From Glaucostegus cemiculus (Eukaryota): 64,000 nucleotides of DNA. The position numbers and the translations under genes are program-made. The DNA lies in the NCBI GenBank assembly GCA_976551045.1, contig CDPCPM010000017.1, positions 372,001 through 436,000 of the forward strand, in the 5' to 3' direction. Below, piece after piece: positions 40 through 52,727 of this stretch. The first letter of the stretch is position 1, and each line of letters opens with the position of its first letter. The notes under the pieces were generated by a model. The model was not told where the DNA came from and searched no databases. It saw nothing but the letters and a program-made list of their open reading frames with translations.

Positions 40-170
40 TTTCTCTGCAACTTAAAACTTTTCCTAGTTGAAATGAACGATCATTGACCTGAATGAAACA
101 TTAACTCTGTTTTTCTCCCAAGAGATGCTGCCTGACCTGCCAGACATTTCCGGCTTTTGCTGTTTCCTTC
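40..170 (+). mobile_element. Penelope-like element 3' terminus with degenerate hammerhead-like motif
   Basis: Matches the recurrent motif ...gacctgaaac-ttaactctgttt-ctc-cagatgctgcctgacctgc seen downstream of GIY-YIG remnants elsewhere in the window. Confidence 0.6.
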
Positions 171-180
171 CCATTCTTAT

Positions 181-945
181 CTATAGAGTCATACAGCATG
201 GAAACAGGCCCTTTGGCCCAACTTGTCCATGTTGACTGTGTTGCCCAATGAGCTAGTCCCACCTGCCCACATTTGGCCCATAGCCCTCTAAACCTCTCCT
301 ATCCATGTTGCCTGGATTGGAGAGCATTTCTTATGAGGATAGGTTGAGTAAGCTGGGGCTTTTCTCTTTGGACAGAAGGAGGATGAGGTGTGACTTGATA
401 GAGGTGTACAAGATGATAAGAAGCATAGATTGAGTGGACAATCAGAGGCTTTTTCCCAGGGCAAAAATGTCTAACACGAGTGACATAATTTTAAGGTGAT
501 TGGAGAAAGGTATGGGGGGATATCAGAGGTAAGTTTTTTTTACACAGAGTGGTGGGTGCATGGAACGCATTGCTGACAGAGGCTGTGGGGGCAGATACAT
601 TAGGGACATTTAAGTGACTCTTAGATAGCCACACGAATGATAGAAAAATGGAGGACTACAAGGGAGGGAAGGGTTAGATAGATCTTCGAGCAGGATAAAA
701 TTTTGGCACAACGTAATGTGCCGAAAGGCCAGTACCGTGCTGTAGTATTCTATGTACTTATCCAGATGGGTTTTAAGTGTTGCTAATGTGCCTGCCTCAA
801 CCACTATTTCTGGCAGCTCATTCCAAATATGCACTACTCTCTGTGTGAAGGAGCTGCTCCTTATGTCCCTTTTAAATCTCTCCTCTCTGATCTTAAACCT
901 GTGCCCTCTTGTTTTTAGTACCCCCTCCCTGGGAAAAAGACAATA
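181..945. mobile_element. Nested CR1 LINE 3' ends: a + strand copy (~306-751) inserted into a - strand copy (181-305 and 752-945)
   Basis: CR1 tail motifs (gggccgaaaggcc..gtgctgta; agaaggaggatgagg..gacttgatagaggtgtacaag) occur in opposite orientations; the minus copy reads continuously once the insert is removed. Confidence 0.8.
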
Positions 946-949
946 TGCT

Positions 950-1668
950 TGAACTTGTCAAGAAGGAACTTGTAGAATGCCTACCAGAGGGCTTTGAAGA
1001 GCAGCTTGTGGTCGAGCCCACTAGGCAAAAGGCAATTCTGGATTTGGTGTTGTGCAGTGAACCAAATTTGATTAGGAAGCATAAGGTAAAGGAATTCTTT
1101 GGAGAAAGTGATCAGAATATGATAGAATTCACCCTGCAGTTTGAGAGGGAGAAGCTGAAATCGGATATATCAGTATTAAAGTTGAGTAAAAGTAACTACG
1201 GAGGCATGAGGGAGGAGCTGGCCAAAATTGATTGGATGGGGACCCCAGCAGGGATGATGGTAGCGCAGCAATGGCAGGAGTTTCTGGAAGTAATTCGGAA
1301 GATGCAGCACCAGTTCATCCCAAAAAGGAAGAAACGCTCTAAAGGGAGAATGAGGCAACCGTGGCTGACAAGGCAAGTCAAAGGCAGCATAAAAGCAAAA
1401 GAGAGGGCATACAATATTGTTAACATTACTGGTAAGTGAGACGATTGGGAAAAAGCCAACAGAAGGCAACTATAAAAAGCAATGAGGGGAGAAAAGATGA
1501 AATATGAAAGTAAGCTAGCCAATAATATAAAAGAAGATACCAAAAGTTTTTCAAGATGTATAAAGAATAAAAGACAGGCAAGAGTGGACATTGGACCGCT
1601 GGAAAATGATGCTGGAGAGATTGTAATGGGAAACAAAGAAATAGCAGACGAACTGAATAAATACTTTT
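950..1668 (+). mobile_element. CR1 LINE ORF2 fragment (APE endonuclease C-terminus and linker), broken by stops/frameshifts
   Basis: ORFs 909-1439 and 1482-1766: EPTRQKAILDLVL, GESDQNMIEF (GxSDH-like), PWLTRQVK, KEIADELNKYF. Confidence 0.9.
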
Positions 1669-1994
1669 CCTGTCTCTCTGCAGCCGACGATCGTCTTCCT
1701 CAATTTACACCTCCTCCAGACAGATCAGCTGTGATTTACAAGCATTTATCACCCTCTCTTAGGTGACATCAACATGTCACCAGGATTCTCCTGGTCACCA
1801 CCCTATCACAGACATTGCCTTTGTTGTCTCCCCCTCTCCACACCTTTGGGAGACCCTCAAATGTGGGGACGTGGTTACAAGGTTGGGGCTTACTGCACTT
1901 TTTCGTGACTGCTATACAAGAACACTCAATCTTGTTCTGCATCAGCACTTCCCAAATAATACCAGTTAACAACACAACCCAAATGTTTTATGTT

Positions 1995-2190
1995 TATTGA
2001 TTTGTTGTCACATGTACCAAGATACAGTGAAAAACTTTTGTTTGTGTGCCATCCAGGCAGACCGTGCTATACATATGTACACTGAGGTAGTAAAAGAAAG
2101 CAGAATGCAGAATATAGTGTTGCAGCCACAGAGGAAGTGCAGCACAGATAGACAAATAAAGTGCAAGGGCTACGACGAGCTAGATTGAGA
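1995..2190 (-). mobile_element. Rex1/Babar LINE 3' tail (resident family)
   Basis: ttgtcacatgtac..gatacagtgaaaaac..cagaatgcagaata tail, the same as the tail of the ORF-bearing copy at 54141-55030. Confidence 0.75.
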
Positions 2191-2196
2191 GATGCC

Positions 2197-2456
2197 ATAG
2201 AATAATACAGCACAATACAGGCCCTTCGGCCCACCATGTTGTGCCGACCTTCAAACCACACCTAAGACTATCTAACCCCTTCCTCCCACATATCCCTCTA
2301 CCTTAAATTCCTCCATATGCTTATCTAACAATCTCTTGAACTTGTCTAACGCATCAGCCTCCACCACTACTCCAGGCAATGCATTCCATGCACCAACCAC
2401 TCTCTGGGTGAAAAACCTCCCTCTGACATCTCCCTTGAACTTCCCACCCATTACCT
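2197..2456 (-). mobile_element. CR1 LINE 3' end
   Basis: acagcacaatacaggcccttcggcccaccatgttgtgccgacc tail and the CR1 ORF2 C-terminus. Confidence 0.8.
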
Positions 2457-3401
2457 TTCTGTATTACTTACTAAAGTGAATGAACTGGAGATGCTGTGTC
2501 TTTGTCTACTCATCAATCTGTCAAGCGACACTGGGACCTCTTGGCATCACAACTCACAATCCAACCTGATGTTGGCAAACTTCAAAATAGTACTTGCTGC
2601 ATCCCTCATCCAAATTATTGATATATTTTGTTGATAACTATGACCGTGTGGGGTTGGCTACTGTAAATTGTCCCTAGTGTAGGTGGGTGAGAGGAGACTC
2701 AGGGAGTAGTTTATGAGCATGTGAGAAGGAATAGATCACAGGAAAGAAAAGGTTGATGGAAATGCCAATATAGACTCAATAAACCGAACGGTCACCTATA
2801 TGGTCAAGAACATATGAAATGTGAAATATAAAGTCAAGCCCTGCTTCTGATCATGTTCATCTCACATTGCATGATTAATTACTCCCAAGAGTTCTATTAA
2901 AATGTGGAAATATATATAGAAATGTGAGAATCATTGCAAAATAAATTCAAAACTTATAAAATGGATTTCATTGAGAAAACTTGCAGAATATTGGATCACT
3001 TTAGTACGATTGTTGAGTATGCTAAATGAGTTCAAGAAGGACACATCCATTTTTCAGTCCTTCTCTTCTTAGCCAATCCCTTAGGATTGAGGATGACTTG
3101 CTTCTCCTCCCGTTCTGTATGCTCTGAGGTGACGAATATGAGTTCAGCAAATTCTACCACAGGTGAGGTCAGAGGTGCCTGACAGGGCAGGCAGGTGGGT
3201 TTTGAGCTGGTGTGCTGTTTACACTGGTCTTGTGTGTGCTTCCAACACATGGGCTTGAGTTTCTCTATATAAATTCAGATGCTTCTCTGCCTTAAGTGAT
3301 CATAGCCAGCAAATCCCTGAAGTCAGTGGGGATGTTACATTTTTCCCAAGGAGGCTTGAAGCACTTGCATGAATCTTTTCCTCAGGTAGTCATTTCCCAT
3401 G

Positions 3402-4046
3402 TGTTACAAACCAGCAACAAAAGAAACACACTGAGTCATGTATACACGTTAAAAACTATTTTATTAATAACTACTTATGATAAGAAGAAAAATAAAAGTA
3501 AAAATGTTAGAATGCTAGAAGTAAAGATGTTAAATTATAAACATTAACCCCAAAAACTAAACTTGAAGTGTTTGTGTGGCAAATTCCCAAACTCCAAGTC
3601 CAGGAATGGTTCTTATCAGTTCAGCACGCCATATGGTGAAACGTGAAATGTGAGCAAAGGCATTTTCAACAACCATCTCTATATCTATGTTTTGACTGAA
3701 GACAAAATGTAGATATAGAGAGAACATAGAGAGTAATTATGAAATCCAAATGTTCTACTTTGGAACCCAAACGACACCTCAGTGTCTACTCAAATCGTGG
3801 CCATCCACACAAATACCTGTTTCCTTCTACAGGTCAACAACAAAGTGAACTCCAATACTTTGTTCTGAAGTATCTGCCACCCTGAAAAGCATCCGAGAAG
3901 TGGCCATCCCCACCAATACTTGTTTCCCTCTACAGGTTAACGACAAAGTGGACTCCACTGGATTACTCCAAAAATCCATATGTGGATTGTAGTGACAGGC
4001 ACAGTTACTGTTTTTCATCCATCAATAGAGACTAGCAGGCTGCTGC

Positions 4047-4079
<33 letters not shown>

Positions 4080-4216
4080 TCTCTCTTCAGACTGACTCCA
4101 ACTGACTGCTCCAAAAACATTATTACGTCCTTTATCTTCTGTTGACATAACTACGCCAACACACACCACGCTCTATCTTAAAGGGACATTCACCAATAGT
4201 AACTCAGTTTATAACA
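3402..4216 (-). mobile_element. Solo LTR (815 bp), probably Gypsy-type
   Basis: Starts TGTTACAAAC and ends GTTTATAACA (9/10 inverted match); CATG on both sides (3398-3401, 4217-4220); minus-strand AATAAA near 3460; internal ~60-bp direct repeat (3797 and 3900) and (CT)n. Confidence 0.85.
4046..4086. repeat. (CT)n microsatellite inside the solo LTR
   Basis: Direct reading. Confidence 0.95.
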
Positions 4217-4959
4217 CATGACAGAGGGAGGAATAGAGTGTCTATTTCAGAAGTCCGGTATTGGGCAAGGAAACAATGTGGCCTTCCCAGTGAAACTGAC
4301 TGTAATGAGAACTTCAATACTGGGGATATTGACCTGAGATTTCAATAACCTTGGATACACAGAACAAAATTAATCAGGCTCTTGACACAAAGAAACAGAA
4401 ATGAAAACCTAAAGTCCTTTACAAACAATGAAATATCTTTGAACTGTAATAAACTACTATATCAACATACTGATGGAAGCCAGTATTTGCAGAGCAAGAG
4501 GGCACAACCAGCAATTTGACAACAATCATGTCCATTGTTTTTAATAATGAAGTTTGACTGATAAATGTTGCCCAGGGAGCAACTCCGAGAAGTCCACTAC
4601 TCTCTGACAAAACACACAATGTACAAATGCATGCCCAAGACATTTATAAGTTTGTAGAACATGTGTACATTGCTATACCAAGACCCTAATTTTTACTTGA
4701 CAGTTACTGCCTTCAATAAAAGTGTTCTGTTTACAGTATGACCTCCATCTATTTACTCATGCAGAAACACAAGGAATCTCAGAGACACTACACTGGGGTT
4801 GAATGTTGGATGTTGCTGCTTGAGGGAGGAGCAACAGTGATCTAATATGAGGAAAGTAAAGGATGGGGTTAGAACAATGACAGAGGTAGGCAACAGATGT
4901 GTCAGCTATATCGGTGAGCTTCAGAGACATGAGGGGAGTCAGCATCCCTTCCATCTATT

Positions 4960-5240
4960 GGTAATTGGCTAATTATTGTCACATGTACTGAGATACAATG
5001 AAAAGCTTTTTTTTTGCATGCCAGCCAGACAGGTCATTCCATACATAAATGCTTCAAGGTAGTGCAAAAGGAAAATAACAGAATGCAGAATATTGTGTTA
5101 CACTTGCAGAGAAAATGCAGTACAGGAGACAAATGCAATGCAAGGGACATGACAAGGTAAATTGAGAGATCAAGAATTCATTGGTATCATACAGTTTTAT
5201 AACAGCGGGATAGAAGCACCCTTGAGCCTGGTGGTAGGTT
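4960..5240 (-). mobile_element. Rex1/Babar LINE 3' tail
   Basis: attattgtcacatgtactgagatacaatgaaaagc..gcgggatagaagc..cttgagcctggtgg. Confidence 0.75.
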
Positions 5241-5269
5241 ACATTCCTGAAGGCAATGATTTTGTTGAG

Positions 5270-5580
5270 GAGATGACGTAGCCCATCAAACCTATGTCAA
5301 CTCTCAGATCAATCTCATCAGTCCCATTCCCACACATTTCCATGTAACCCACCCTTCTTCAGGTGCCCATCAACCTCCCCCTGATTTTCCCACCTCCCAC
5401 CCACACTAGGAACAATTACAGTGGCCAACTAACCAGCCAGTGTGTGTCTTTGGGATGTGGGAAGAAACTGGAGCACCCAGCGGAAAAGTACGCAGTCACA
5501 GGAAGAACTCGCAAATTCCATACAGACAGCACCAGAGGTCAGGATTGAACTGCAAGGCAGAAGTAGTGCCTGTGCCACAC
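5270..5580 (-). mobile_element. tRNA-derived V-SINE (decayed)
   Basis: gggatgtgggaagaaactggagcaccc..cacaggaagaac..caaattccatacagacagcacc is the reverse of the V-domain and tRNA head. Confidence 0.75.
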
Positions 5581-6119
5581 ATTGTCAAGTCTATTGGTGC
5601 CACAAACTACAAACAAGGTCTGAATAAAACCTTTGAAGGATCATTTTAACTTGGGTGATCAGAGATTTTTGAGAACTACATGCTTGGTAATATACAGGAC
5701 CAGGCTAAAGATATTGGCATAAAGATTAGATCAGACCTTGTGCAAATGCTCAGTGTGTGAAGACTAGGGTATAAGGGCATTTGGGGAAACTTAATACAGT
5801 GGACCTACCATCTGAATGACCTTGTAGGCTTGCACTTAAAAACATGAGGCAGTTTTGCTGCAGGTACAATTCTGAGGTGCGAGTGTGGAACAAGCCCACA
5901 ATGAATGGTAATGGATTTGTGAGATTTTTCTTCATAGCTAGGTCATGTGTACATGAGGTTTGGTGGGTAACCAGTCCCTTACCCACAAATGGACAGAGGC
6001 CAAGTCTCAGCCTTGTGATTTCTTGAGAAAATCAAATTGAGAACCTACTCTTTTCAAGATGGCTTGTGTTACAGCTGTTACAGTCATCCTGTTATAGGTT
6101 GGATACAATAGGCTAAGTT

Positions 6120-7000
6120 TATAGAACATTACAGCACAGTACAGGCCCTTCGGCCCACAATGTTGTGCCAACATTTTATCCTGCTCTAAGATCTATCTAA
6201 CCCTTCCCTACTGCATAGCCCCCCATTTCTCTATCACTCATGTGTCTATCTAAGCGTCTCTTAAATGTCCCTGATGTATCTGCCCCCACAACCTCAGCTG
6301 GCAGTGTGTTCCATGCACCCACCACTCTCTGTGTAAAAAACTTACCTCTGACATCCCCTAAATATCTTCCTCCAGTCACCTTAAAATTATGTCCCCTCGT
6401 GTTAGCCATTTTCGCCCTGGGAAAAAGTCTCTGACTGTCCACTCGATCAATGCCTCTTATCATCTTGTACATCTCTAATCCTCTTTCTCTCTAATAGAAA
6501 CATAGAAAAACTACAGCACAATTCAGGCCCTTTGGCCCAAAAAGCTGTGCCGAGCATGTCCTTACCCTAGAAGTTACAATGAGAAAAGCCCTAGCTCACT
6601 CAACCTATCCTCATAAGACAAAAAGAGTCCAGCTGGGATACAGTACATACGTACAAACTTAGACATATTATATTCAGTTCTGTCATCAAAGTCAATGATA
6701 CATAGAAATACAGAGCACAGAAAAGAGCCTTTCAGCCACCTCATCCATGCCAACCTTGATGCCTATCTATACTAATCCCATTTGTCCACATTGGGCCCAT
6801 ATCCCTCTCTGCCTTTCCTATTCAGGCACCTGTCCAAACATTTTTTAAAAGTTGTGATTATATCTGCCTCCACCACCTTCCCTGGCAGCTTGTTCCAGAT
6901 ATTCACCACCCTCTGTGTGGAAGGCTTGCCCCTCATATCACCTTTAAATTTCTCCTCTCTCCTCTTAAATCTGTGCCCTCTAGTTCTGGACTTTACTGTA
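6120..7000 (-). mobile_element. Cluster of CR1 LINE 3' ends
   Basis: ORF 6197-6472 YKMIRGIDRVDSQRLFP..TRGHNFKV..FFTQRVVGAWNTLP; further tails start at ~6495 and ~6700. Confidence 0.85.
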
Positions 7001-7059
7001 CTGAGAGAAGACTCTATCTTACCAAAAAATTCAAAATATTTGCAGCTGACATATTATGT

Positions 7060-7820
7060 TCTTACAATGGAAGGAGTGCAACAAAGGTTCACCAGATTGT
7101 TTCCTGGATGATAGGTTTGTCATGGGAGGAGCAACTAAGCAGATCAGGCCTGTGCTCACTGGAGTAACAAACAAGAAGCTGGAGGAACTCAGCGGGTCAG
7201 GCAGCATCTGTGGAAGGAAATGGACAGTCGACATTCTGGATCGAGACCCTTCATCTGGACTGAAAGATAGAGGGGAGATAGTATCAGGAGGTGAGGGGAA
7301 GGGGTGGAGCTAGATGGAGACCCAAGAGACTGCAGATGCTGGAATCTAGAGCAACAAATGAGAAGCTGGAGAAGGTGGCAGGTCAGGCAGCATCTTTGAA
7401 GGGAAGCATCTGTGGAGAGCAGATTAGGCCTGTGCTCTCGAGTTCAGAAGATTGAGAAGCGATCACATTGAAGCACACAATATTCTTACAGGTTCGGCAG
7501 GGCAGAAGCAAGAATGATGTTTCTCTTGGTCAAGGTGTCTGGAACCAGAGGTCACAATATCAAAGGAAGGAATTGGCCGTTTGAGACAGAGATATAGAGC
7601 ACTTTCTTCAGAGGTTGACAAATCTTTTGAATTCTCGACCCAGAAGGGCCACAAAGGCTCAGTCGCTGAGTATATTCAACACAGAGATCAACACATGTTT
7701 AAATCAAGTGACATTGAGTAAATGCAGTGAAATGGCAGAGAGGAAAAAGATCAGCCACAACTTTCATAGACGGTGGAGCAGGCATGAGGGGCTAAATGGC
7801 CAAATCCTACTTCTATTTCT
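7060..7820 (+). mobile_element. Old CR1 LINE 3' fragment interrupted by a Penelope-terminus insert
   Basis: MEGVQQRFTRLFPG motif; the CR1 sequence resumes at 7418. Confidence 0.75.
7161..7417 (-). mobile_element. Tandem partial Penelope termini with hammerhead-like motif, flanked by a ~20-bp duplication
   Basis: agcagatcaggcctgtgctc (7138-7157) vs agcagattaggcctgtgctc (7418-7437); minus strand 7262-7225 reads CAGTC-CAGATGA-AGGGTCTCGATCC-AGAA-TGTC-GACTG. Confidence 0.75.
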
Positions 7821-8373
7821 TGAGTTCTCATTTCTAAAGGATCTACAAGTAGGGAAATGAAAAACAGTTTCGCTCAAGATTCGACATGAAGTATAGGCAA
7901 GGAGAAGCTGAAGGAGATCGAAATAGAAACATTCTTTTTCATGACCATATCATATAGTTGCTGCAAGCACAATGGCAGCAAGAAAGTAGGTCATGTGTGT
8001 GCCAGAGGCAGGAAGGTTGTGAATTCTATGGCTGGAAATGGAGAGAGACCTGGTTATAATGGTTATGGAAGGCTTTTAGCATCAGAATGTTTGCTTCGAG
8101 TGGTGGAATAGGACAGATTAGACATTGCAGATCTCTGTGGAAGGCAACTGCTGATAAGGACAGTCCTGAGGCAGTAATACCCAAATTTGGAAGTTGGAGA
8201 GCGAAGGGTTAGAATTGGGTACGTTCAGTAGATTTAGTGTTCACCTGACAATACATTATTGACAATACATTGCCAGCTTCCTTACCAATTGAGGAGTGCA
8301 TATATCAATGTGTGTGTTGTCACTGCTGCAAGCCAGTCTGTTGGAGCAAGATGTGTGCCAAAAATATCTCAAG

Positions 8374-9197
8374 CAGAATCAGAATCAGAATCATTTTATT
8401 GTCACAACCATATACACACACACAGTATGCATAGGAGTGAGATACCGTCCTCCACAGGGTGCACGTCACATTAAATAACAGGCAAAAAAATGACACACTG
8501 ACACACACACTACATAAAAACATTAAAACCACGAAAATTAAATTAAATACAGCAGGTTAAATAAATAGATTTAAAGTGAACGAACTGGTAGCGGGCATTT
8601 AAAGTGCTGGTGCATTTCTAAGCGCCTAGCACCCTTTAGTGTTAACAGGGTAGATGGAGGAATGAGAGAGTTCACAGTTCTGATGGCTTGTGGGAAGAAG
8701 CTATTGCACAGCCTCGTCGTTCTCGCCCTGATGCACTTGAGCCTCTTTCCAGATGGCAAGAGTGTGAAGAGATGATGGGATGGGTGAGAAGGATCCGACA
8801 TTATATTTTTGGCCTTCCTAACACAATGGTCCTTGTATATGTCTGCGATGGAGGGGATAGAGACATCTATGATCCTCTCCGCTGTCCTTACTATCCTCTG
8901 GAGGGACTTCCGTCCAGCAGCTGAGCAGCTCCCAAACCAGACAATGATACATTGTGTTAGGATGCTCTCGATGGTCCCTCTATAGAAAGTTTTCATTATC
9001 GAGGGATGGGAGCTCACTTTCCTCAGTCTCTGCAAGAAGTAGAGGCGTTTCTGGGCCTTCTTAGTGAGGGCCATGGTGTTAGTGGACCAGGTCAGGTCAT
9101 CAGTGATGTGCACCCCCAGGAACTTGGTGCTGCCTACTTGTTCTACAGCAGACCCATTGATGGTCAGCGGGGCGTGCACATGGCGACCAGGTCATTG
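8374..9197 (-). mobile_element. Young Rex1/Babar LINE, 5'-truncated, with open ORF2 C-terminus
   Basis: ORF 8571-9179: KFLGVHITDDLTWS, KKAQKRLYFL, IESILT, DPSHPSHHLF, SFFPQAIR; (TGATTC)n tail. Confidence 0.92.
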
Positions 9198-12970: not shown

Positions 12971-13464
12971 CAAACCTTTGAACAGACACAACAGATAATA
13001 TAATCCCATTATTATGCCTAGTCACTTGACTGACATTGTTTGGGAATTTGCCATTTATGCATATATCTTGATATTCTGCTCATTGCACTCTCGCCTTTGA
13101 GTCAGAAGCTATTCCTGCTCTAAATCTTGCTTTGCTCCCTCATGAAGACATTCCCATTGGCATCATGAATCTTTCAACACCTTCCATCACTTTAGTGGGT
13201 TCCTAACCCTAACTATCTCCTCTTTACTACAAATGTCCAATCCCTATATATCTTCATTCCTCACCACTGTGTCACCCAGGCCTTTTGTTTCTCCCTTGAA
13301 TAGAGGCCAGCCAGTCTCTCTCCATTATCACCTTTCCCTGCCCGACTGAAAGTGAACTAATTCTCCTTTGACTCCTCGTCCTTATCTAGATAAGAGTTGT
13401 GAAGGAAAAATGTTTGAAACTATTTATGTTCTACGGGAAGGAAATTCAGGCAACAATGCTACAG

Positions 13465-13670
13465 GCAGGGAAACGTTCAGCAAGTCAGGCAGCATCTGTG
13501 GAAAGAGAAACAAAGTTAACTTTATAGGTCAAAGACCCTTAAGCCAATTTTGATAAAAGGTCATCAACATGAAATGTTCACCCTGTTCCTCTTTCCACAG
13601 TTGCTGCTTAATCTGAGTGTTTCCAGAAATTTCTGATTTTATTTCAGATTTCCACCATCTGCTGTTTTGG
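13465..13670. mobile_element. Head-to-head inverted pair of Penelope termini (palindromic element)
   Basis: Left arm ggcagcatctgtggaaagagaaacaaagttaac is the reverse complement of right arm gttcaccctgttcctctttccacagttgctgc; centre at ~13545. Confidence 0.75.
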
Positions 13671-13829
13671 GATTTTCAATGCTACATCCCTCTCTGTCAC
13701 CTAACCTGCACCTTGCCAAAACTTTTGGTGTGTTTGTTAGTGCATTTCCCAGTAGTTAGGATAAGGCTTTTGTTTATGGAAATATTTTCACCTGTGCATC
13801 ATTTCACATGACAAGGACGATGAACGTAT

Positions 13830-17011: not shown

Positions 17012-17527
17012 CAGAATCAGAATCAGTTTTATTGTCACAACCATATACATACATAGTATGCATAGGAGCGAGATACCGTCCTCCTCAGGTGCTCGTCCCA
17101 TAAAAAAAAGAATAACATAACAGCCAACAGAGAGACACATACACACTTGGCAGAATACACAGTACAAAACATTACACATTAGAAGCTATGGAGATTGAAA
17201 TTGAATTATTACGCAGATTAAATTAAAAATGGCCAGTAAATAAATAAATAGTTCTTAAAGTGAACGGGCTGGTGTCGGGCATTTAAAGTGCTGGTGCATT
17301 TCTGTGCACCTAGCATCTCTTAGTGTTAACAAAGGAAGATGGAGGGATGAGAGAGTTTGCAGTTCTGATGGCTTGCGGAAAGAAGCTATTGTTCAGCCTG
17401 GTCGTTCTTGCCCTGATACATTTAAGCCTCCTCCCTGATGGCAAAATTGTGAAGAGGTGGTGGGAGGGGTGAGAAGGGTCGGCCATTATGCTTTTAGTCT
17501 TCCTCACACAACGGTCTTTGTACATGT
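17012..17527 (-). mobile_element. Young Rex1/Babar LINE 3' end inserted into a Penelope tail
   Basis: (TGATTC)n tail; peptide DPSHPSHHLFTILPSGRRLKCIRARTTRLNNSFFPQAIR; nearly identical to 35988-36545. Confidence 0.92.
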
Positions 17528-17529
17528 AC

Positions 17530-17880
17530 ATCAACTTCAGGTACTTGTAACTCGCTTTCTCTGTATTATGAGAACTGGCCATTCCTACTATAGGTCATCA
17601 ATCTTGGATATTGGTTCAGTTTTTCTCTCACCATTAGCCCAGCCTGATCCTCTGGGTGTGTCTGACAGCCGAGAATTTTGCAGACATTTGATATGTCTCC
17701 GCAGCAATCTTGGCCTTACTGTATCACAGATATTCCCATTGCTTCCCCCACCTTGCTGAAAAATAATACTAAATTGTTTACTCACTTTCCAAGTTCTAAC
17801 AAAGGATCTTTGACCTGAAATGTTAACCTCTGATTCTCCTTCCACAGCTGACCTGCTGAGTATTTCTGCCATTTCCTTTT
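17530..17880 (+). mobile_element. Penelope-like 3' region with degenerate hammerhead-like motif (continues from ~16970-17011)
   Basis: ctggactcagcgtcaaattcaacaac (GLNIEFNN-like) precedes the Rex insert; agttctaacaaaggatctttgacctgaaatgttaac..gacctgctgagtatttc at ~17790-17870. Confidence 0.6.
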
Positions 17881-18277
17881 TTTTTCTCTGCAGCGTTTTG
17901 TTTTTGTTTTCATTTACTAAGAAAGAAAGCAAAACAACTTTAGCCTCCTCTGTCATATTTTAGACTAAAATTTCTCTTGAGAACAAGGACAAGGGAAGAA
18001 AGTTGTGACTCTGTTGCTGATTTGACTGGGTTAATCAGTTTCCTTCTGATAAATGTTTACCAGACGTCTTCATTTTCTACTTTCCTTTTTTTTAGCTTAA
18101 ATTCTCTGTCACTGTAAAAATTGGAAAGAAAGTTATGTTCAGCAGACCAGAAAATGAGTCTGCTCAGTACTTGGACTGATATCAGGCAACTTAGGAGCGT
18201 TAGTGGAACACTGTTTCAAGAAATTTCATTTCAATTCCTGAACACAGATTTCTGAAGGTAAAGCAATAACTGAATGA

Positions 18278-23427: not shown

Positions 23428-24452
23428 GTAAAGGCAGCAGCAACAGCACCCAGTAAGCAAACTTCTTTTCCGGGCAGTTACTGTGGTATGACTTTTATTA
23501 TCTTGATATACCATCCACAGCTGTAGGTTGAGCGTTGTGAGTTGATCGGAGAGAGTAGGCTGGAGAGTAACTGTTCCTATTGGTGGAGAAGTTAGGAACC
23601 AGAGATGTAAAATGAAGGTGACTGGCAAAAGGGCCAAAACTGACAAGGGATTTTTTTTTACACAGTGAGTGGTTCGGTTTAGGTGGTCAAAGTGCAGCAA
23701 GTAAACCTGAGATGGTCATGGCTGAATTGTGAACATTGGAAATCATCTGAAGAAGTGGTGACATTCCACCTTCAACCGGGACAGCAGAAAGTAGGGAATG
23801 CTCTGTATTTACAGGAAGTCAAGATCAAGACAGAATGAGAGCAGGGGTGCATAGGCCACTGGCCTTAAGAAGGAATCAAATTAAATATGATTTGGTTGGA
23901 TTTAATTATTTAGTAATAAACTGAAAACAATGTGATCAAAATAATAAGCAACAAGTATCATTAGCCTATGGCAGGTTCGGAGCTGCTGCTGACATTTAGA
24001 TGCTAATGCATTGTGGCAATAACAATTGCACGGGATATGAAATTGGTTTGAGAGAAGCTTACGTGGCAAGGTGTTGAATGGAAATTATTTGCACCTGGAA
24101 TGGCTACTGTTGAGATTTTAAGTTTAATATACAGGGTAGAACTCACAGTTGAGGGGAGTAAAGAAATTAGTAAATTTATGATGAGAGATCCTCAGCCTGA
24201 CAGATTAACTCTGTTTCTCTCTCCACTGGTGCTGACTGACCAGCTGGGTAGTTCTGGTATTGTGTTTTTATAAATTTATATTCAGTTATGTCTTTTTTAA
24301 TTTGTTAATTGTATGATTTTACATGTGTAGATTCGTAAACTGCTGATATTATTTAATAAATGTCATTAGTTGGCGGTGTCAATGGGTTTTTTATTTTTAT
24401 TCAGTGTTGCATATGTGAATGTGAATCTACCTTTAACAACTTTGTTTCCCAG

Positions 24453-24522: not shown

Positions 24523-24689
24523 GGACGTTTTGCTAGTAATTCTATCCATGTTACTTGACGTAGAGAACAGCAGCACAAAACGGTTCTCCAGACCCTGCGG
24601 GAATATTTCATATTGGCCTGCTTTCTCCAGAATGGAAAAACGCTTAAGGCAAGTCTTGTGGCTGCTGGAGGTCTGAAAAAAAGAACAGA

Positions 24690-25970
24690 GAGAACTTTAA
24701 ATCTGGCAGCACTTGTGGAATAAGAAACAGAGTGGATGCTTCAGGTCGATGACCTTTCCTCAGAACTGGGAGCAGTGAGAGATGAAACCGGTTTTAAGAT
24801 GCAAAGAACTTGGGCAGGAAGGAGAGAACAAAAGGAGACACTTGTGATGAGGCGATTTATTGAAAAAAGGAATAAAAATGTAAGGAGAATATAAGGGGCA
24901 AAACTTCACTCTGGAGCAGTAAAATGGGAGAAGCAGAATAATGGGCGGCACGATAGTGTAGCGGTTAGCGCGACGCTGTTACAGCGCCAGCGATCGGGGT
25001 TCGATTCCCTTCACTGACTATAAGGAGTTTGTACGTTCTCCTGTGTCTGCGTGGGTTTCCTCCGGGTGCTCCGGTTTCCTCCCACATTGTAAAATACGTA
25101 CGGGTAGGTTAATTTGGGGGTTTAAAATGGGCTGCGTAGACTCGTTGGGCCAAAAGGGCCTGTTACCACGCTGTAAATAAAAAAAAATTATCTGAAAAAA
25201 ATGAACAGAAATCTAAAACTGTGTTGTGTTTTCAAGGCTATTACGAGCACTGTTGGAGGTGAGATGTGTCTCAAGTTTACATTGAGATCGATTTGAATAG
25301 GGCAGGGAGGCAAGGACACAGAGGTCAGAGTGGGAGTAGGGTGAAGAATTAAAATGACAGATGACTGGAAAGTCAGGGTTGCCCTTGTGGGCTGAATGGA
25401 GGTATTCTGCAAAGTGGTCACTCATCCTCTTGGAACAGTAAATGCAGCACACTAAAATGTAAGGAATACAAGTAATTTGCTGCTCCACCAGGAGATTGTG
25501 TTAGGGGACCTGGAGGTGGAAAAGGAGAATGTCAGTGGCCTTGTTTTGAATCTCCTGGTGCCAGAGAAAGCAAAGTGAGTATTGGAAGAGCTGGACCCAT
25601 GTCTGGGATGGAATGGTCCCTCTGAATGCTGAAGAGTGGAGAGGGGAAGATGGCATCATGATGGAGATACTGGAAATGAAGAGGATGACCTGATGAATGA
25701 TGTGGAGGTTGGAAGGATGGAAGGCAATGACAAGGGGTACCCTCTCCTGGTTCAGGGCAGGAAGAGAAAGGATGCGAGCCAAAGTGCAGGGAATATAATG
25801 GGTACAATGGAGAATCCTGTTGTCTACAATGGAGGGGTATCCACTCTTGAGCAAAAAGGAATTTTACGTGGAAGCATACTTTTGGAAGGTGGTATTGCTA
25901 GAAGAGATCCAATAGAGTTGGAGAATGTGATGGGGTACTTAAAGGCAGGGTGGGATAAAGTGGCCTTTTG
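24690..25970 (-). mobile_element. Penelope-like element remnant (post-RT linker, GIY-YIG C-terminus, 3' terminus with hammerhead motif), split by a SINE
   Basis: ERVPLVIAFHPSNLHI (ORF 25501-25854); DHFAEYL..PDFPVICHFNSSPYSHSDLCVL..CKLE (ORF 25213-25488); minus 24768-24731 reads CAGTT-CTGAGGA-A-AGGTC-ATC-GACCT-GAAG-CATC. Confidence 0.85.
24943..25187 (+). mobile_element. Young full-length tRNA-derived V-SINE with CR1-like tail
   Basis: A box TAGTGTAGCGG, B box GGTTCGATTCC (24998-25008), V-domain gcgtgggtttcctccgggtgctccggtttcctcccaca, tail gggccaaaagggcctgtt..ctgta plus poly(A); CpGs intact. Confidence 0.9.
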
Positions 25971-27819: not shown

Positions 27820-28557
27820 CACAAGATCACAAGATCACAAGACAATGGAGCAGAAGCAGGCCAGTCGGCCCATCGAGTCTGCTCCAAAGGGAAGGGAAGG
27901 TGGGGGGGGGGGGAAAGAAAAAAAAAAACAAAAAAAAAACCCACCTACTATTCTAAGTCCAAATCCCTGCCTTATCTCCATATCCCCTGATACCTTGACC
28001 AATTAGATATCTATCTATTTCCTTCTTGAATATCCCCAATGATCTGGCTTCCACTGCTCTCTGTGGTAAGGAGTTCCACAGGTTCACCACCCTCTGGCTA
28101 AAGAAATTCCTCCTTATCTCTGTTATGAACCTGCTTCTTCTAATTCTAAGTTTGTGTCCTCTAGTCCTGGATTCCCCCACCAAGGGAAACAGCTTGACCA
28201 CATTCACTTGGTCCATTCCTTTCAACATCCTGTACGTTTCTATTAGGTCCCCTCTCATTCTTCTGTACTCCAACGAGTACAGTCCAAGTGACGACAGTCG
28301 CTCGTCATATGTAAACTTTTTCATCCCAGGAATCATCCTAGTAAATCTCCTCTGAACCCTCTCCAACATCAGCACATCCTTCCTAAGGTATGGGGCCCAA
28401 AACTGCACACAGTACTCCAAGTGAGGCCTCACCAGTGCCCCATATAGCCTCATCAACACTTCCTTGCTTTTATATACTATACCCCTCGAAATAAATGCCA
28501 ACATAGCATTCGCTTTCCTTACTGCCGATCCAACCTGGCGGGTATCATTTATGGTAT
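27820..28557 (-). mobile_element. Young 5'-truncated CR1 LINE with open ORF2 C-terminus and 10-bp TSD
   Basis: ORF 27953-28594 [43 protein letters not shown]; (ATCTTGTG)-type tandem tail; CATTATTTAT at 27810-27819 and 28558-28567. Confidence 0.92.
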
Positions 28558-28689
28558 CATTATTTATGATATCACTGTTTGCTAGATTGTGCAATGTCTT
28601 ATATTTGGGCTGGCATGTTTTGACTAATTTTTAGTCCCAAACCATCCCTACCTCCTGACACCTTAAACATTTCCACTGCCCCAAAGGCA

Positions 28690-33540: not shown

Positions 33541-34262
33541 GGCCCAACACAAACTAGAGGAACATCTCATCTTCAGTTTGGGCACTCTACAACCTTCTGG
33601 AATGAACATTGAATTTTTCAAGTTCAAGTCATTTGTTTTTTCACTGTTTCATATTAGGTATCTTTATTAGTCACATGTACATCGAAACACACAGTGAAAT
33701 GCATCTTTTGTGTAGGGTGTTCTGGGGGCAGTCCGCAAGTGTCGCCACACTTCCACACCAACATAGAATGCCCACAACTTCCTAACCTGTATGTCTTTAG
33801 AATGTGGGAGGAAATCGGAGCACCTGGAGGAAACCCACACAGACACGGGGAGAACGTACAAACTCCTTACAGGCAGTGGGCAGAATTGAACCCGGGTCGC
33901 TGACGCTGTAAAGCGTTACACTAACCGTTACACTACCGTGCCTGCCCCACCATCATGCTTATGTCTCTTTCTCACCTCGTTTCTATAAAATGCCTTCTTA
34001 ATAGTCAGTGCTCATGCTTCTTATCACCTGATCTGTTTTAACCAATCTTCATATAACCTTTTGTCTCACACCTCACCCCTCCTGTCAGCTCTGTTTTGAA
34101 AGCTACATCCCTTCCATTCTTCCCCTAGTTCTGAGGAGGAGTCCCTACCAAAAACAGTGATTGGGTTCTCTTCCCACAGAGGCTGCCCGATTGGTTGAGT
34201 TCTTCCAGCGTTCTGTTTCAGACTCCTGTACCTGCAGCTCTGTTTGTTTTCCAAAATTATTT
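33541..34262 (+). mobile_element. Penelope-like 3' fragment inside a CR1 (33285-33540 and 34265-34585), itself interrupted by a SINE
   Basis: AQHKLEEHLIFSLGTLQPSGMNIEF (GIY-YIG C-terminus) at 33542-33617; agttCTGAGGA..ttcccacagaggctgcc..tgagttcttccagc terminus at ~34127-34210. Confidence 0.8.
33655..33948 (-). mobile_element. Full-length V-SINE with Rex1/Babar-like tail
   Basis: Reverse strand has a tRNA head (ggcacggtagtgtaacggttagtg..gggttcaattc), a V-domain and the tail catttcactgtgtgtttcgatgtacatgtgactaataaa. Confidence 0.85.
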
Positions 34263-35987: not shown

Positions 35988-36545
35988 AGAATCAGAATCA
36001 GAATCAGTTTTATTGTCACAACCATATACATACATAGTATGCATAGGAGCGAGATACCGTCCTCCTCAGGTGCTCGTCCCATTAAATAACAACCAACAGA
36101 GACACACATACACACTTGACAGAATAAACATTAAAAAAGAACATTAAACATTAAAAACTACGGAAGTTAAAATTAAATTAATACGCAGATTAAATTAAAA
36201 ATGGCCAGTAAATAAATACATAGTTATTAAAGTGAAAGGGCTGGTGTAGGGCATTTAAAGTGCTGGTGCATTTCTGTACACCTAGCACCTCTTAGTGTTA
36301 ACAAAGGAAGATGGAGGGATGAGAGAGTTTGCAGTTCTGATGGCTTGCGGAAAGAAGCTATTGTTCAGCCTAGTCGTTCTTGCCCTGATACATTTAAGTC
36401 TCCTCCCTGATGGCAAAATTGTGAAGAGGTGGTGGGAGGGGTGAGAAGGGTCGGCCATTATGCTTTTGGTCTTCCTCACACAACGGTCTTTGTATATGTC
36501 TGCAAGGGATGGAAGCGAGACACCTATGATCCACTCCGCAGCCCT
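35988..36545 (-). mobile_element. Young Rex1/Babar LINE 3' end
   Basis: (TGATTC)n tail; ORF 36282-36479 has the same peptide as the 17-kb copy; TTTTCTTTT on both flanks. Confidence 0.92.
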
Positions 36546-38199
36546 AACTTTTCTTTTTTTCTTTTTTCTTTTGATTAATTACTGAAGATGCATTAGTTTC
36601 CTGTGTGCTTCTTTGATCAGGGACAAATACGATTTAGCTCACAATTATGAAACTTCCAATGAACCTTGTGGGATGGTTGTGGGGTTATCAGGAATGCAAT
36701 TGAAGAAAACACATAAATTAGTCATCATCTGATTCCACAAAGTTACTGTGAAACTGCCACCTAAGATCAACAGAAGTTTCAAAATTTGCAAATGGTTCAA
36801 TTGAGAATGGTGTACAAACTTAATGAAGGGGAATTGTCATAGTTCCAGTATTTCTGGGGTGTAATTACATCTCCACTGCCACTGTTACGCATGAGCTTTC
36901 TTGAATGAAAGGGTTGTCTGTAATCTGAGTGGCTCCTTGCCAAATTGCCACATTTCCAATGGATGTAAATTGTGCATATGTTTACACTTGATATTTAAAC
37001 ATTGTAAAAAAAAAGCTTTCTTACAACTAAACAGGCATTGCAAATGTTTATTAGTTCCTTACAAAATCAAGTGAGGTCAAAAAAACTTTTTCGATTTGAG
37101 AAACAAATCTTGCTGAGGAGATCAAATTCAGGTAAATCATGTTCATCTGAATGAGATTGGATTGTGTTATTCTTGGACGAACAAACCATGAAACCTTTGG
37201 ATGTTCTTCGGAATCTTTCAATTATTTATGAATGCAAGTGATAAACTGTTAAATGTTAACATTTCTGCAAACATAGGAATTGGCCAGACCCAGGAACTGT
37301 ACATTACATCAATCTGCTAACAGGGATCCCTCTTACACATTTGAAAAATTACACTTCAGATCAGCATGTCATTAAGGCAGAAAATGAAGTGCAGAACAAG
37401 AATCCCCAAAAGCTTACATGATCGTCACAGGACTTGGTCAATTTCACTCATACATTCAGTGATATATGATAGTTGATCTATTCCCCCTACAGTACACAAC
37501 TTTCTTTACAAGGGCTAAAGGCTGCCCCAGCTCTACTCCTAGTTCGAGATTATCTTGAGCCTGAAGTTATACAGGGATGTCTGTTGCTTTCAGTGCTGTC
37601 AATTCAGAGCAAATTATTTGATGTTAATCAGAGCAGAATCACCTTACATTCTACAGCCCCTGGTTTTCCACAGCTGATGTTTATAATTGCAAGTCTGCAA
37701 CAGGCTGGTCTTGTCTCCGAGTTGTTTCCACAATCAACGTCATTTTAATGTGGATCAGTCATCCAACTCACAGTCTCCTCCCTTGAAGAACACCGGACTG
37801 ATTTTAATCTGCTTCCTATCATCTGTGGTTGTGGGTTTACTCTACGAATGTAGTTCTCAGGCTCAGGGCATCATGTAAACCTTCCCGCCACATCAAGGTG
37901 CATTTCCTAAAGAAGAACGTTGCAGTTTACAGCACTGTAAGGTGCAGCACAGCAACTCCATCTCTAAATATGACTTGTTCCTTAAGCAGAGGACCACGTC
38001 CGTTTGCATGGTCAGGTCAGGTTCCTAATACAAGAGGAATCTCAAGAAAAACACTGCATCTGATGTTTTATACCTGCACAACCTTTCCAGAAATCTGTCA
38101 CAAACCTTTCTGACAACTACTTCTTGTCCAATATGTTTTGTGATAATGTTTATTAATTTCTATAATACTTCTGTGCTTTGTGCCCCATTTTTGTTTCAT

Positions 38200-38510: not shown

Positions 38511-39169
38511 AGAAAAATGCACAAAATTATTACAGGACTTGACATTATCTCAGAGTGATTAAGGAGTTGCATTTTTCTCTGTTCTGATAAACAGATTTGT
38601 CCTAAAGCTAAACTCTCCTTTCTTCCCAGATCTTGCCCAACCTGCTGAGTATCTCCAACAATGACTAATATTTAAGGACATACAGTGAATTGTTTCATGG
38701 AATTGTGCAGACATTGGAAAAGATGCCTTGCATGGCAATTGTGGCTAAATCCATAATGCCTGTTATCCATTTTCATTAATAAAGAAAATAAGTGAAAGAT
38801 GGAAAGTGATAGCCTCTTTTTGTTATTTGTAGAAGAGTTTGTAATGTGTTCAGAAGTCTGTGTTAAGGTGTCTTCTGTTTTCCTTTCATATAAATCATTT
38901 GGACACAAACATAAGATACAAGTGTTTTTAATTGGTGCCAAATGTTGGGACACATCAAGATGTGGGTCAAATTTCTGGAAACTGCTGGACAACCGTTGAT
39001 TAAATTGATAGCTGTTGGATGTCATTTGAAGCAGAGAAATGTGAAGTTGTATGTCTTTCTTTAAAAAAAAATAGAAAATACTTGCCTAGAAATTCAATTC
39101 CATAATGTTTGTTTGTATTCAACACTATGGAAGTGAAGTATGATAGTAGCCATTTCTGGCTCACCAAGT

Positions 39170-49360: not shown

Positions 49361-49429
49361 CTTACTTGAGATGAGCTGTGGTAATTGACATTTCCTTCCA
49401 CTCTTTTTTTCTAACTTTTCCAAATATAT

Positions 49430-49750: not shown

Positions 49751-50224
49751 GATACCCCACTCAACTCTCCCTGTTTCAAGATGCACACTGGGAACGTGGA
49801 CCTTCCTTGCCCGACTCCAATATTGCAGTCACATGATGAGGAAAAGCTGTTTATTGGTGCACATGGGTGAAAACCAGGAACTATCCTGGAGTCCAGGGGT
49901 CAGGTTCATTGCTGTTACTGCAGATCCTCATTTGTACTTCAGTTGAGTATAAAGAGAAAAGAAGTACTGTACCATTTTACAAAGCTCATTCAAACCTCTT
50001 GGGTCAGTGTATATTCTTCAAACCAGTAGGAGCACTGATCTTGTATTCCCATCCTTTCCAAACCCCCATTGGCTTTTGTTCCTTCAACAACTAATCCAAT
50101 CTGTTTTTAAAAGTTGACACAGGCCTAGGTTTTTACCATGAGCTGTAAGGTAATAGCAAACAGCATTCACCTAACCTACAATTGCTAAGAGGTTTTCACT
50201 GGCCAATCAGTGAAAGTTTAACAC

Positions 50225-50650
50225 CACAAGATCATAAGAAATAGGAAGAGGGTTAGGTCATTCAGTCCCTTGGACCTCTTCTGCCATTCATTGGGATCAT
50301 GGCTGATCCAATTTTGCTCAAGTCCACTTTCCTGCCCTCTCCCCATAACCTTTGTTTCCTTTACTGAATAAAAATTGATCTCAGCTTTCAATGTATTCAA
50401 GGACTCAGCCCCTACAGCTTTGTGGGCCAAGGGATTCCAAAGACTTGATTTCAATTGGTTTCCCCTGGTTCTGAGACTATGCCCTCTGATTCTAGTGTCT
50501 CCCATGGGGAAAACATCCTCCCACTGTCAAGCCCACTCAGAATTTTTCAATAAAATCAACCCTCTTCTTCAATGAGTACAGACCGAAGCTATTCAACCCT
50601 TCCTAATCACACAATCTGTTCATATCTTAGTAAACCTCTGAACTCCCTCC
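50225..50650 (-). mobile_element. CR1 3' end
   Basis: ORF 50218-50505 TRIRGHSLR..LWNPL; cataagaaatagga tail. Confidence 0.7.
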
Positions 50651-50674
50651 AATCATTATATTTTGAGGGCAGAA

Positions 50675-50762
50675 ATAGAGGGGAGGGGAGGGGAGGGGAG
50701 ACAGGGAAGAGGGTGAGAGAAGGGATGGAGAAAGAGAGAGTTATGAGGGAAGAAAGAGAGAA
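50675..50762. repeat. Purine-rich low-complexity tract
   Basis: gggaggggagggaggggag..agagag. Confidence 0.8.
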
Positions 50763-51659
50763 AGGTTTTCATCCCCTATTTGACTCTGGACCTGTACTCA
50801 TTTTCCAGAGCCTTACGTTATGATGTTTTTAAGGGGATCTAAGACTTCTGTGAGCAGGTCAAACAGCAAGAAGACTTTTCAATTAAACTGATTACACTTA
50901 CTGAAACACTCAGACCACAGAGTATTTCCTTTTCAGCCACTTGTGCTGCCATGTATAATATTTACAACATCTAAAATTGACAAATTCACCAATATTTTCT
51001 TGTTTTGCTTTTTGTCCAATGTTTCACCACACATGCTGCCACCTGTTGGTCATCCAACATTTCCAACCTAGCTCTGGAAGGTTCCACAGGTTTGTGTGTC
51101 CGTACGCACTTTTCTAGAGTTAACTTTCTCATGCAATGACTGCTTCCTTCCTCTACACTCCCAAATTCCACAATATTCCAATCCCTGATGGCGAGTCCTT
51201 CAAATCAGCGAAACTGCAATTATCTGCCCATAATCTTAGCTCTGTTAAGAAGTTATCAAAGGATTCTCTCTGCTCCTGGTTGTGACGAAAGAATTGCTAA
51301 AGGTTAACTGTCACATTTCTAGACAGTTTGCAAAGTGTTTGTGATGCCTCCAATGCATTCCATATGTTCTAATTTGAGGGCTTTATGAAATCACTGTTGG
51401 ATCTGAAATCGGATAGTGGTGGGGGAGGTAGGGCTGATTGAATGTCCGGAGCCTTATGTTGAGCAACATATATAGCACAAAAGACATTGTGCACGACACT
51501 TGGCTCAACATTATTAATATCCTCCTTAAAAAGAAATAACTGGGAGCTTTAATTATCAAGTATTACACCATTTTAACCCAATTTTCCTTGATTGCCCAAC
51601 TTTTTTTTGCCTGATTTTAGGATGAAAGTCACGAATAATTAAGAAAAAAAAAGAGAAAG

Positions 51660-51940
51660 GCTTGCCTGCCTGAGTTGTCTTTAACAGCCATTTGGGAATA
51701 TAGAGCAAAAAGAGTACTTTCTAAATGTCGTCACTGTTATAATGTGAGAACCAATGCAGTCAGTTTGCACACAAATGACTTCAGGAACTTTAATTGAGAA
51801 ATAACTGCAACATTCTTCTGAGGTATTTCGTGGGATTTTTGTTTAACATCTATTTTCATGTTGGACAGGGCTACAATTTACTATCTCATCTGAAGGTGTC
51901 ACCTCTAACATTACAGCACTCTTTCAATACTGCAGTACAG
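51660..51940 (-). mobile_element. Deu-domain SINE (SacSINE1/AmnSINE1-like), decayed
   Basis: agtactttctaaatgtcgtcactgttataatgt..cagtttgcacaca..tctcatctgaaggtgtcacctctaaca..gcactctttcaatactgca. Confidence 0.65.
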
Positions 51941-52449
51941 TTTCCATTATCCTAAATTAATACCATATTGATTTCTTGTGCTCTTTCCTTTGCTGAATGT
52001 TGTAGCAGTGGAGGATATCACTGCTGGATTTTGCACTTTAACCACACATGAGCAGAGGTCTGAGGTTAACGTCAGTATTACTGACACTACAAAATCTGGC
52101 CCATTATTTCTGTTTCAATAACTGACTTTGATAATGTATTCCACATCAAAATGTCTTGCTAGTTGCATTTTAGCTGGTATTTATTTGCTCCTCATACTAA
52201 AGTCTGAAAACAGTTGGAAAATCCTGTTTCTATCTACTTCCCTTCTTCATAAGCCCCATCTCCACGACCAAATCATCCTCTTCTCTCCTCCGTACTAATT
52301 AGATTTGTCCCAGTTTTTCAGGTCCTTTATTGCATCTGTATTTCAAAGACTACCTCAGTGAATCTATATCCCTTCTCTTGCCATAATATCCTTCCAGTAG
52401 GTTGCAGCCTAAAATGCCATTCAATCCCCCACATACTCCAATTATCTGG

Positions 52450-52727
52450 AGACACAAGCGACTACAGATACTGGAATCTGGGGCAACACACAAGATGCTG
52501 GAGGAACTCAGAAGGTCAGGCAGCATCCGTGGAGGGAAATGGACAGTCATGTTTCAGGTTGAAACCCTTCATTTGGACTGACTTAAGGATGACATTGGTG
52601 AATAATTAAGAATAAGTAAAAGTTTTGCCCGATGAAGGGTCTCAACCAAAAAACGTCTTCTCTCCATTTCCCTCCACAGATGCCACCTGAACTGCTGAAT
52701 TCCTCCAGCATCTTTTTTGTTGCTCCT
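52450..52727. mobile_element. Head-to-head inverted pair of Penelope termini with hammerhead-like cores
   Basis: gatgctggaggaactcag..ggagggaaatgga (left arm) is the reverse complement of tccatttccctcca..ctgaattcctccagcatc (right arm); ~47-bp spacer. Confidence 0.8.

Follow-up and report, generated by a model that had tools for sequence, protein, structure and literature searches.

Decayed terminal fragments of Penelope-like elements with minimal hammerhead ribozymes in Glaucostegus cemiculus include two lineages with non-canonical cores

A 64,000-nt window of the Glaucostegus cemiculus genome (assembly GCA_976551045.1, contig CDPCPM010000017.1, positions 372,001–436,000) carries degenerate hammerhead-like motifs, which an original prediction made from the letters alone assigned to about ten Penelope termini. 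All the places named in it are copies of one repeat of about 100–140 nt. By its sequence, the motif is the minimal hammerhead of metazoan Penelope-like elements (PLEs), lying in fragments of Neptune-type pseudo-long terminal repeats (pLTRs). Two lineages, U4A and C9, have spread widely with non-canonical cores, and the copies have their 5′ ends concentrated at the leading edge of stem I, where the sequence resembles an initiator, instead of at the cut site. We consider it probable (about 0.7) that the short copies, here called stumps, are decayed terminal fragments of such elements, made by the reverse transcriptase (RT) on uncut RNA from about 100 or 130 nt behind the ribozyme to the RNA 5′ end.

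Positions in the repeat are counted from core letter C3 = 0, with the predicted cut between +27 and +28. Four profile models built from 120 loci outside the window matched 12 places in it, 11 of them at 21.7–99.9 bits and the copy at 38.6 kb at 15.3 bits, against control maxima of 5.6 bits in the reversed window and 6.3 bits in five shuffled windows, so the motifs are real at the places originally named. The matched spans are 73–165 (+), 7160–7265 (−), 7350–7407 (−), 13469–13538 (−), 13544–13642 (+) and 17801–17882 (+) in the first half, and 24177–24273 (+), 24699–24769 (−), 34126–34220 (+), 38615–38667 (+), 52480–52582 (−) and 52629–52725 (+) in the second. The copy at 7350–7407 was absent from the original list and is without the ribozyme part. 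None of the 11 window copies that cover the core has all 11 core letters, as had been stated, and the boxes reported as intact were found so: CTGAGGA in the copies at 24.76 and 34.13 kb, and GAAA in those at 17.8 and 52.55 kb, to which 0.09 and 13.56 kb can be added. A descriptor of the minimal hammerhead had no match within the window, and no hammerhead family was among the five matches of an Rfam scan up to E 10.

The form of the ribozyme is clearest in 24 copies chosen by their RT, blind to the ribozyme (the RT-picked set). Their majority sequence has a canonical type I core in which position 9 is followed by one spare A, together with a short stem II and the palindrome ACGU; stem III is absent. 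The spare base, the lack of stem III and the palindrome recur in all five subfamily models described below, allowing for CpG decay in A3 and B. The 10.1–11.1 pair is G-C in the A-type families, and A-U in B when a 5-bp stem II is assumed. Folding predicts stems I and II. The stems had been described correctly, save that the 2-nt loop given to stem II of the first subfamily is better read as a 4-nt loop on 4 bp. As to whether the cores behind the decayed copies are canonical, the answer is divided: the majority sequences of A1, A3 and B contain the boxes CUGANGA, GAAA and UH, and those of U4A and C9 are non-canonical.

Remnants of RT and GIY-YIG coding sequence lie upstream of the motif in 5 of 30 canonical loci (two of them the sources of the queries), 4 of 30 U4A, 5 of 30 C9 and 1 of 30 B loci; at the U4A/C9 loci, one or two remnants are too distant to be sure. 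Within the window, a same-strand GIY-YIG remnant lies upstream of the copy at 24.76 kb (tblastn E 4.9e-6 and 6e-7 at 25303–25524; pairwise comparison E 2e-4 and 7e-5), and a Pfam scan of 25213–25500 gave no match. This coding link and the match to the minimal hammerhead bear out the assignment to hammerhead-like Penelope termini. A genome search with a 100-aa piece of RT gave 12,907 first-look candidates, of which 150 were scored. Locus L269, about 3.4 kb long and nearly complete as a unit, gives an RVT_1 match of 29.9 bits (cut-off 29.6), and L219 has RVT_1 and then GIY-YIG in one frame, both below the cut-off. The arrangement pLTR–open reading frame (ORF)–pLTR was seen in L263 and L269, and the translation of L216 contains a C-x4-C-x2-C linker, which points to the Neptune/Nematis type. 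No intact ORF was present among the loci fetched. Pfam matched none of four degraded fragments, and in a second set four of six were without a match and one had an unrelated match; comparisons with PDB and NCBIfam returned nothing relevant.

The sequence behind the ribozyme continues into the ORF's beginning in 12 of 29 loci selected by the ORF N-terminus, with the ATG at about +170, so the conserved stretch behind the ribozyme is the 5′ untranslated region (UTR) of the element. An ORF beginning from an ATG inside the core, in the manner of Anolis, was rejected because it stops after 21 codons. L211 was likewise rejected as a full-length unit, its 5′ stump not being continuous with the body. 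Eight of 12 fetched loci (L259, L261, L264–L268 and L270) contain two same-strand pLTRs 0.5–1.8 kb apart with only the ORF start between them and with differing junctions; they resemble retrozyme-sized units in which two ribozymes could dimerise. In L029, a frame about 1.2–1.5 kb upstream of the motif reads like what we take to be the C-terminus of alpha-tubulin.

Copy number was estimated from sixty 10-kb stretches placed at round coordinates on large contigs in the 2.85-Gb assembly. Depending on the model set, 120, 124 or 114 copies of at least 20 bits were found in these 600 kb, and none when they were reversed. The density of about 0.2 per kb corresponds to roughly 0.55 million copies genome-wide, if large contigs are typical, which agrees with the very high copy number originally proposed. 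The same density gives 12.2 expected copies per 64 kb, so the roughly ten motifs that had seemed noteworthy are ordinary: about 12 such fragments can be expected in any 64 kb of this genome. A local cluster in the window was rejected on this ground; the 20 kb beside it contain one copy. Intact-looking motifs are much rarer, the descriptor finding four in the 600 kb, or roughly 19,000 genome-wide with a wide error, and an exact canonical 28-mer occurs 269 times in the genome (control, 0). Six copies, L001–L006, have long flanks in common (up to 1.1–1.5 kb), L005 and L006 being 98% identical over 3 kb, and in several of the six a letter of the stem I 5′ strand is changed. They are likely a segmental duplication carrying the copy.

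Two subfamilies had been distinguished in the window. Clustering of 88 core-covering copies (77 sampled and 11 from the window), based on downstream letters only, gave at least five types: A1 (canonical), A3 (canonical, with a GUU triplet), U4A, C9 and B. Mean divergence from the own model is 0.135 in A1, 0.06 in A3, 0.10 in U4A, 0.13 in C9 and 0.17 in B, which indicates that B is the oldest. A and B differ by two compensatory swaps, adjoining the core in stem I and stem II. The lineage behind the copies at 7.2, 52.5 and 52.6 kb has a non-canonical majority core, a feature that the original prediction missed.

The two altered cores are common and belong to lineages. A pattern open at positions 4, 7 and 9 had 530 matches in the genome; among the first 100 listed, a hand count gave 44 canonical at positions 4 and 9, 26 with A4 and 23 with C9. 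Eight of the same 100 have a CpG-forming C at core position 4 and possibly represent a further sub-lineage. Exact 30-mers occur 109 times for U4A and 72 times for C9. Among the 47 sampled A-type copies, 17 have A4 and 15 have C9, and each change is linked to flank letters of its own (A4, 12/17 vs 3/30, p 3e-5; C9, 13/15 vs 4/32, p 1e-6). Of the copies reaching position 4, A was found there in 20 of 25 picked by the 3′ half and in 21 of 26 picked wholly outside the ribozyme, and in L264 both pLTRs, which enclose an ORF start, have A4. When the first core box was left out of a tree of 59 rows, 13 of 14 C9 rows grouped as one clade (100/96). In the majority sequence of each lineage, the remaining core letters, stem II and the ACGU palindrome are preserved, with stem I of C9 reduced to about 3 bp. 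At window position 7256, the canonical letter accounts for only 20–49% of the depth in contigs of four runs from four other organisms, a count biased towards the reference, and U4A is therefore likely shared between species. Changes in the core usually cost much activity, although some natural variants still cut, according to the available part of PMC3088659.

In the original prediction, kept pairing was taken to suggest selection on RNA structure. Of the cells in the 11 window copies, 70% pair, and only 1 of 500 shuffles reached their covariation score, but kinship alone can raise this score and its signal includes the split between subfamilies. For the 77 unbiased sampled copies, stem pairs were counted on pairwise alignments to one reference; a MAFFT alignment shifts stem II between A and B types. 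None of the 10 stem pairs covaried in these copies (permutation p 0.13–0.89), nor did any within A (47) or B (28) separately, and the only covariation signal was that of a CpG step in the palindrome decaying. Pairing is kept only between subfamilies. In the RT-picked set, there was one compensatory change where 2.45 were expected, along with 50 one-sided changes. CpG cells were changed in 20 of 47 cases in the core and 16 of 40 in the flanks. All core letters were kept in 8 of the 24 copies, and core, stems and palindrome together in none.

These results bear on whether dispersed copies are held by selection as structured or self-cutting RNAs, forming an under-described host system, which we regard as very improbable and, for the bulk of copies, as already largely refuted. 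The pairing in the window can be cited for it, as can the four descriptor-level intact motifs, from which some thousands may exist genome-wide, and the related contigs that are plentiful in four runs guessed to be RNA. No accumulation of ends was listed for these contigs, which by nature reveal neither RNA ends nor strand. It would also gain from the somewhat better preservation of non-CpG core letters, which were changed in 8 of 231 cells of the RT-picked set vs 206 of 2332 in the flanks (p 0.004; with base correction p is 0.009, and without 10 lineage-diagnostic columns it is 0.11). There is some core constraint, at least in master copies, and it weighs against pure neutrality; we read it as constraint on master elements, with decay after insertion. 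Against selection on the dispersed copies stand the missing covariation, the 24 RT-picked copies without a single complete motif, and the CpG-intact B 30-mer, with no exact copy compared to 155 for a decay-tolerant pattern. In addition, single minimal hammerheads were uncut in vitro in the part of PMC4209133 available to us. Nor is the system under-described: it matches the metazoan PLE minimal hammerhead of that paper point by point.

The ends of the copies were counted in the 119 of 124 sampled matches that reach +60. Their 3′ ends fall at +90 to +109 in 46 copies, at +110 to +119 in 10 and at +120 to +140 in 55, the two groups corresponding to the PLE tail. At the 5′ side, 27 copies end at −41 or beyond, 8 at −40 to −11, 41 at −10 to +9, 34 at +10 to +41 (5 of them at +26 to +31, around the cut site) and 9 further down. 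Thirty better-kept copies picked outside the ribozyme gave 13 ends at −67 or beyond, none at −66 to −15, 13 at −14 to 0, and single ends at +8, +16, +28 and +37. Three of the 12 ORF-linked 5′ copies also begin 3–13 nt before the core. All five subfamily models have YYANWYY, the initiator consensus, at −6 to 0, where the start A would be at −4. An internal promoter with an initiator has been described for Drosophila Penelope (PMC2377424, in the portion at hand). Seventeen head-to-head pairings were found among the 119 copies. In a target-site test, a repeat of at least 8 nt flanks 8 of 35 stumps vs 12 of 163 in the control, about 3 of the 8 being expected by chance.

We propose that the element would be transcribed from the front of stem I, and that, by analogy with the Anolis element (PMC11167929, as far as its text was available), its protein would prime in one or the other of the two terminal-sequence copies in the RNA, at +100 or +130. 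Priming in the downstream copy would yield variably truncated long insertions, and priming in the first copy would run off at the RNA 5′ end just before stem I, leaving stumps of 100–140 nt. Both routes would copy uncut RNA, which would account for the spread of altered cores. The cap would be lost on cutting at +28. Canonical master copies would have to be dimers to cut, and dispersed copies are predicted to be inactive. Since lineages with altered cores have spread and copies begin at the front of the motif rather than at the cut site, self-cutting is likely not needed for the spread of the element.

Several observations weigh against this reading. The ends counted are those of genomic DNA copies, not of RNA; the 34 copies with 5′ ends at +10 to +41 form a long tail behind the peak; and the peak at −3 in the 30-copy set is inflated by two search patterns that require that letter. 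YYANWYY is a short, common pattern, and the AG that follows a pyrimidine run at −4/−3 could instead be a splice acceptor. Only 3 of the 8 flank repeats lie within 3 nt of the 5′ end, so abutment of stump and target is not shown. The U4A rows of the 59-row tree are not one clade (5 changes, poor resolution), and the Pfam match to GIY-YIG was weak (E 0.051).

The main competitor of a transcription start is a 5′ edge set by a splice acceptor before stem I, with stumps made from spliced RNA. The pyrimidine run and AG occur in all five models, 10–47 nt separate flank repeat and element in 5 of 8 stumps, and an intron of the Drosophila virilis Penelope ends at helix I in the part of PMC4209133 consulted. 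We think splicing unlikely all the same, as no common upstream exon was seen in the stumps and the spacing is drawn from flank repeats of which chance should supply about 3 of 8. Less likely again is that the short copies are a separate non-autonomous family, similar to SINEs (short interspersed nuclear elements) or retrozymes, moving as its own small RNA. Most copies are indeed only 100–140 nt, and the eight loci with two closely spaced same-strand pLTRs would suit such a family. However, in every subfamily the 5′ lengths form a continuous series reaching into the coding body, each short tandem has a junction of its own, and the window is without a tandem array of the motif.

A tentative alternative, which we hold to be possible but doubtful, keeps the same element and lets the altered cores still cut, with the spare A behind position 9 replacing A9 and U4A tolerated with protein help, so that cleavage stays in the cycle. 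The other core letters, stem II and palindrome kept by both lineages would fit this, as would naturally occurring core variants whose activity is low but real, among them U4C in a viroid, and the protein-assisted Anolis ribozyme (available parts of PMC3088659 and PMC11167929). The lack of a 5′ end pile-up at the cut site and the C9 stem I of about 3 bp speak against it. Copying of uncut RNA, the reading we prefer, can be carried further, though only speculatively: the genome may be a natural mutagenesis record, in which crippled-core lineages have made about 90,000 insertions each, every stump derives from uncut RNA starting at an initiator that overlaps stem I, and the motif is kept mainly as a promoter or protein-binding element, or as a cap-removing off-switch, not as a processing step. 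The role of the hammerhead in PLEs has been seen differently, the 2014 work proposing cutting and circularisation (PMC4209133) and the 2024 in vitro work finding cutting unnecessary (PMC11167929), each in the portion available. The altered-core lineages and the ends that avoid the cut site provide in vivo evidence on this role, and U4A and C9 are naturally occurring variants that a simple assay could use.

The window copies are solo or head-to-head paired and broken, with no tandem array of complete hammerheads. The first is a pLTR fragment of the old B subfamily at 1–175 (+), with a decayed ribozyme at about 62–105 and an insertion in stem II (50.1 bits). A pLTR fragment of the U4A lineage follows at 7151–7314 (−) with 99.9 bits; its ribozyme (7225–7262) has A at core position 4 (7256) and a broken GAAA box. 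A second tandem stump at 7310–7407 (−) begins behind the ribozyme (21.7 bits), and an 18-nt direct repeat with one mismatch (7138–7155 and 7418–7435) flanks the tandem pair, likely as a target-site duplication. Two B copies form a head-to-head fold-back pair at 13.5 kb, with the left arm at 13469–13552 (−; 34.1 bits), the right arm at 13544–13672 (+; 53.2 bits) and a 10-nt direct repeat at 13454 and 13677 on either side. The B copy at 17718–17913 (+; 35.0 bits) has its ribozyme at about 17790–17830, with the first box decayed and GAAA intact, and in the B stump at 24177–24273 (+; 40.3 bits) both boxes are decayed.

A longer B element is represented by its 3′ UTR and pLTR at 24660–24940 (−; 53.2 bits), where the ribozyme (24731–24768) has an intact first box and stem II and a broken GAAA box, and by a broken coding remnant at 25213–25900 (−), which comprises the region behind RT and then GIY-YIG. 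A repeat inserted into its 3′ UTR at about 24945–25180, presumably a tRNA-type SINE on the opposite strand, parts the pLTR from this remnant. The stump at 34120–34230 (+; 35.6 bits) is highly diverged with an intact first box, and the weakest copy, at 38570–38670 (+; 15.3 bits), scores only from the part behind the ribozyme. The last pair lies head-to-head at 52.5 kb and is flanked by a 9-nt direct repeat at 52440 and 52730. Its left arm, a U4A-lineage stump at 52444–52582 (−; 91.0 bits), begins 6 nt before the core; its right arm at 52625–52728 (+; 65.4 bits) is best scored by the U4A model and has C at its own position 4. A 29.9-bit match to the upstream part of the B model at 1695–1837 (+) is without a ribozyme and may be another repeat.

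The window is otherwise rich in debris of SINEs and of LINEs (long interspersed nuclear elements). One LINE 3′ end is present in three copies (17168–17582, 36140–36554 and 8571–8897), two of them 94% identical over 300 nt. The frame 8571–9191 (−) matched ALKBH8_N in Pfam (E 2e-14), and a 236-aa frame at 56638–57348 (+) with zf-RVT (E 5e-10) is a remnant of a non-LTR retrotransposon. No convincing Pfam match was obtained for the open frames 27953–28630 (−; 225 aa) and 897–1439 (+; 180 aa), which we take to be pieces of CR1-type LINEs.

The system itself is known. New here, as far as the literature search shows, are the U4A and C9 lineages, together with the initiator-like sequence on which the 5′ ends peak. 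The search found no report of these core variants or of this 5′ edge in cartilaginous fishes, but Lunse et al. 2017, on variant PLE hammerheads, may already contain such variants, and preprint supplements may list chondrichthyan families. Neither variant appears in the examined text of PMC4209133, PMC3088659, PMC6765202, PMC7229834 and PMC6155905.

The closest relatives are the minimal hammerheads of metazoan PLEs (Cervera and De la Peña 2014, PMC4209133; examined in part), likewise of type I, without stem III, with a palindromic 15.2–16.2 and, behind position 9, one spare base. In both cases there are also many families in a genome, with copies that are mostly solo and opposite-strand pairs lying near each other. 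The 40 species of their Fig. S3 include no cartilaginous fish, the rows examined have U4 and A9, and their descriptor fixes the boxes. Their 4,000–9,000 intact motifs in coelacanth and Xenopus are of the same order as the roughly 19,000 here, which lie within about 0.55 million decayed copies. In that work, the monomer of a minimal PLE hammerhead did not cut and the dimer cut weakly. Non-LTR retrozymes, in the available text of PMC7229834 and bioRxiv 10.64898/2026.07.22.740005, also have type I hammerheads in PLE-related non-coding repeats; unlike the solo or head-to-head, broken copies of the window, they form tandem repeats and typically have canonical ribozymes as well as circular RNAs. The 2026 preprint includes one chondrichthyan.

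As for the carrier, the endonuclease-bearing (EN+) Neptune/Nematis PLEs (Craig et al., bioRxiv 10.1101/2021.04.23.441226, in part) have RT followed by a C-terminal GIY-YIG and a CX2-5CxxC linker, as well as partial tandems, an inverted 5′-truncated partner and a 30–40 nt tail, all in common with the repeat described here. Our tentative placement in this clade follows from domain and linker features; the loci fetched here contain no intact ORF. In the Anolis Poseidon element PAc (Frangieh et al. 2024, PMC11167929, in part), the core is canonical and the ORF starts in stem II, whereas the main ATG of the present element is about 170 nt behind the core. PAc also has its ribozyme at the pLTR/ORF junction, and its two priming sites, about 110–150 nt behind the ribozyme, match the tail found here. 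Its template is uncut RNA, and in vitro its catalytic mutants remain able to insert, with no reads ending at the cut site.

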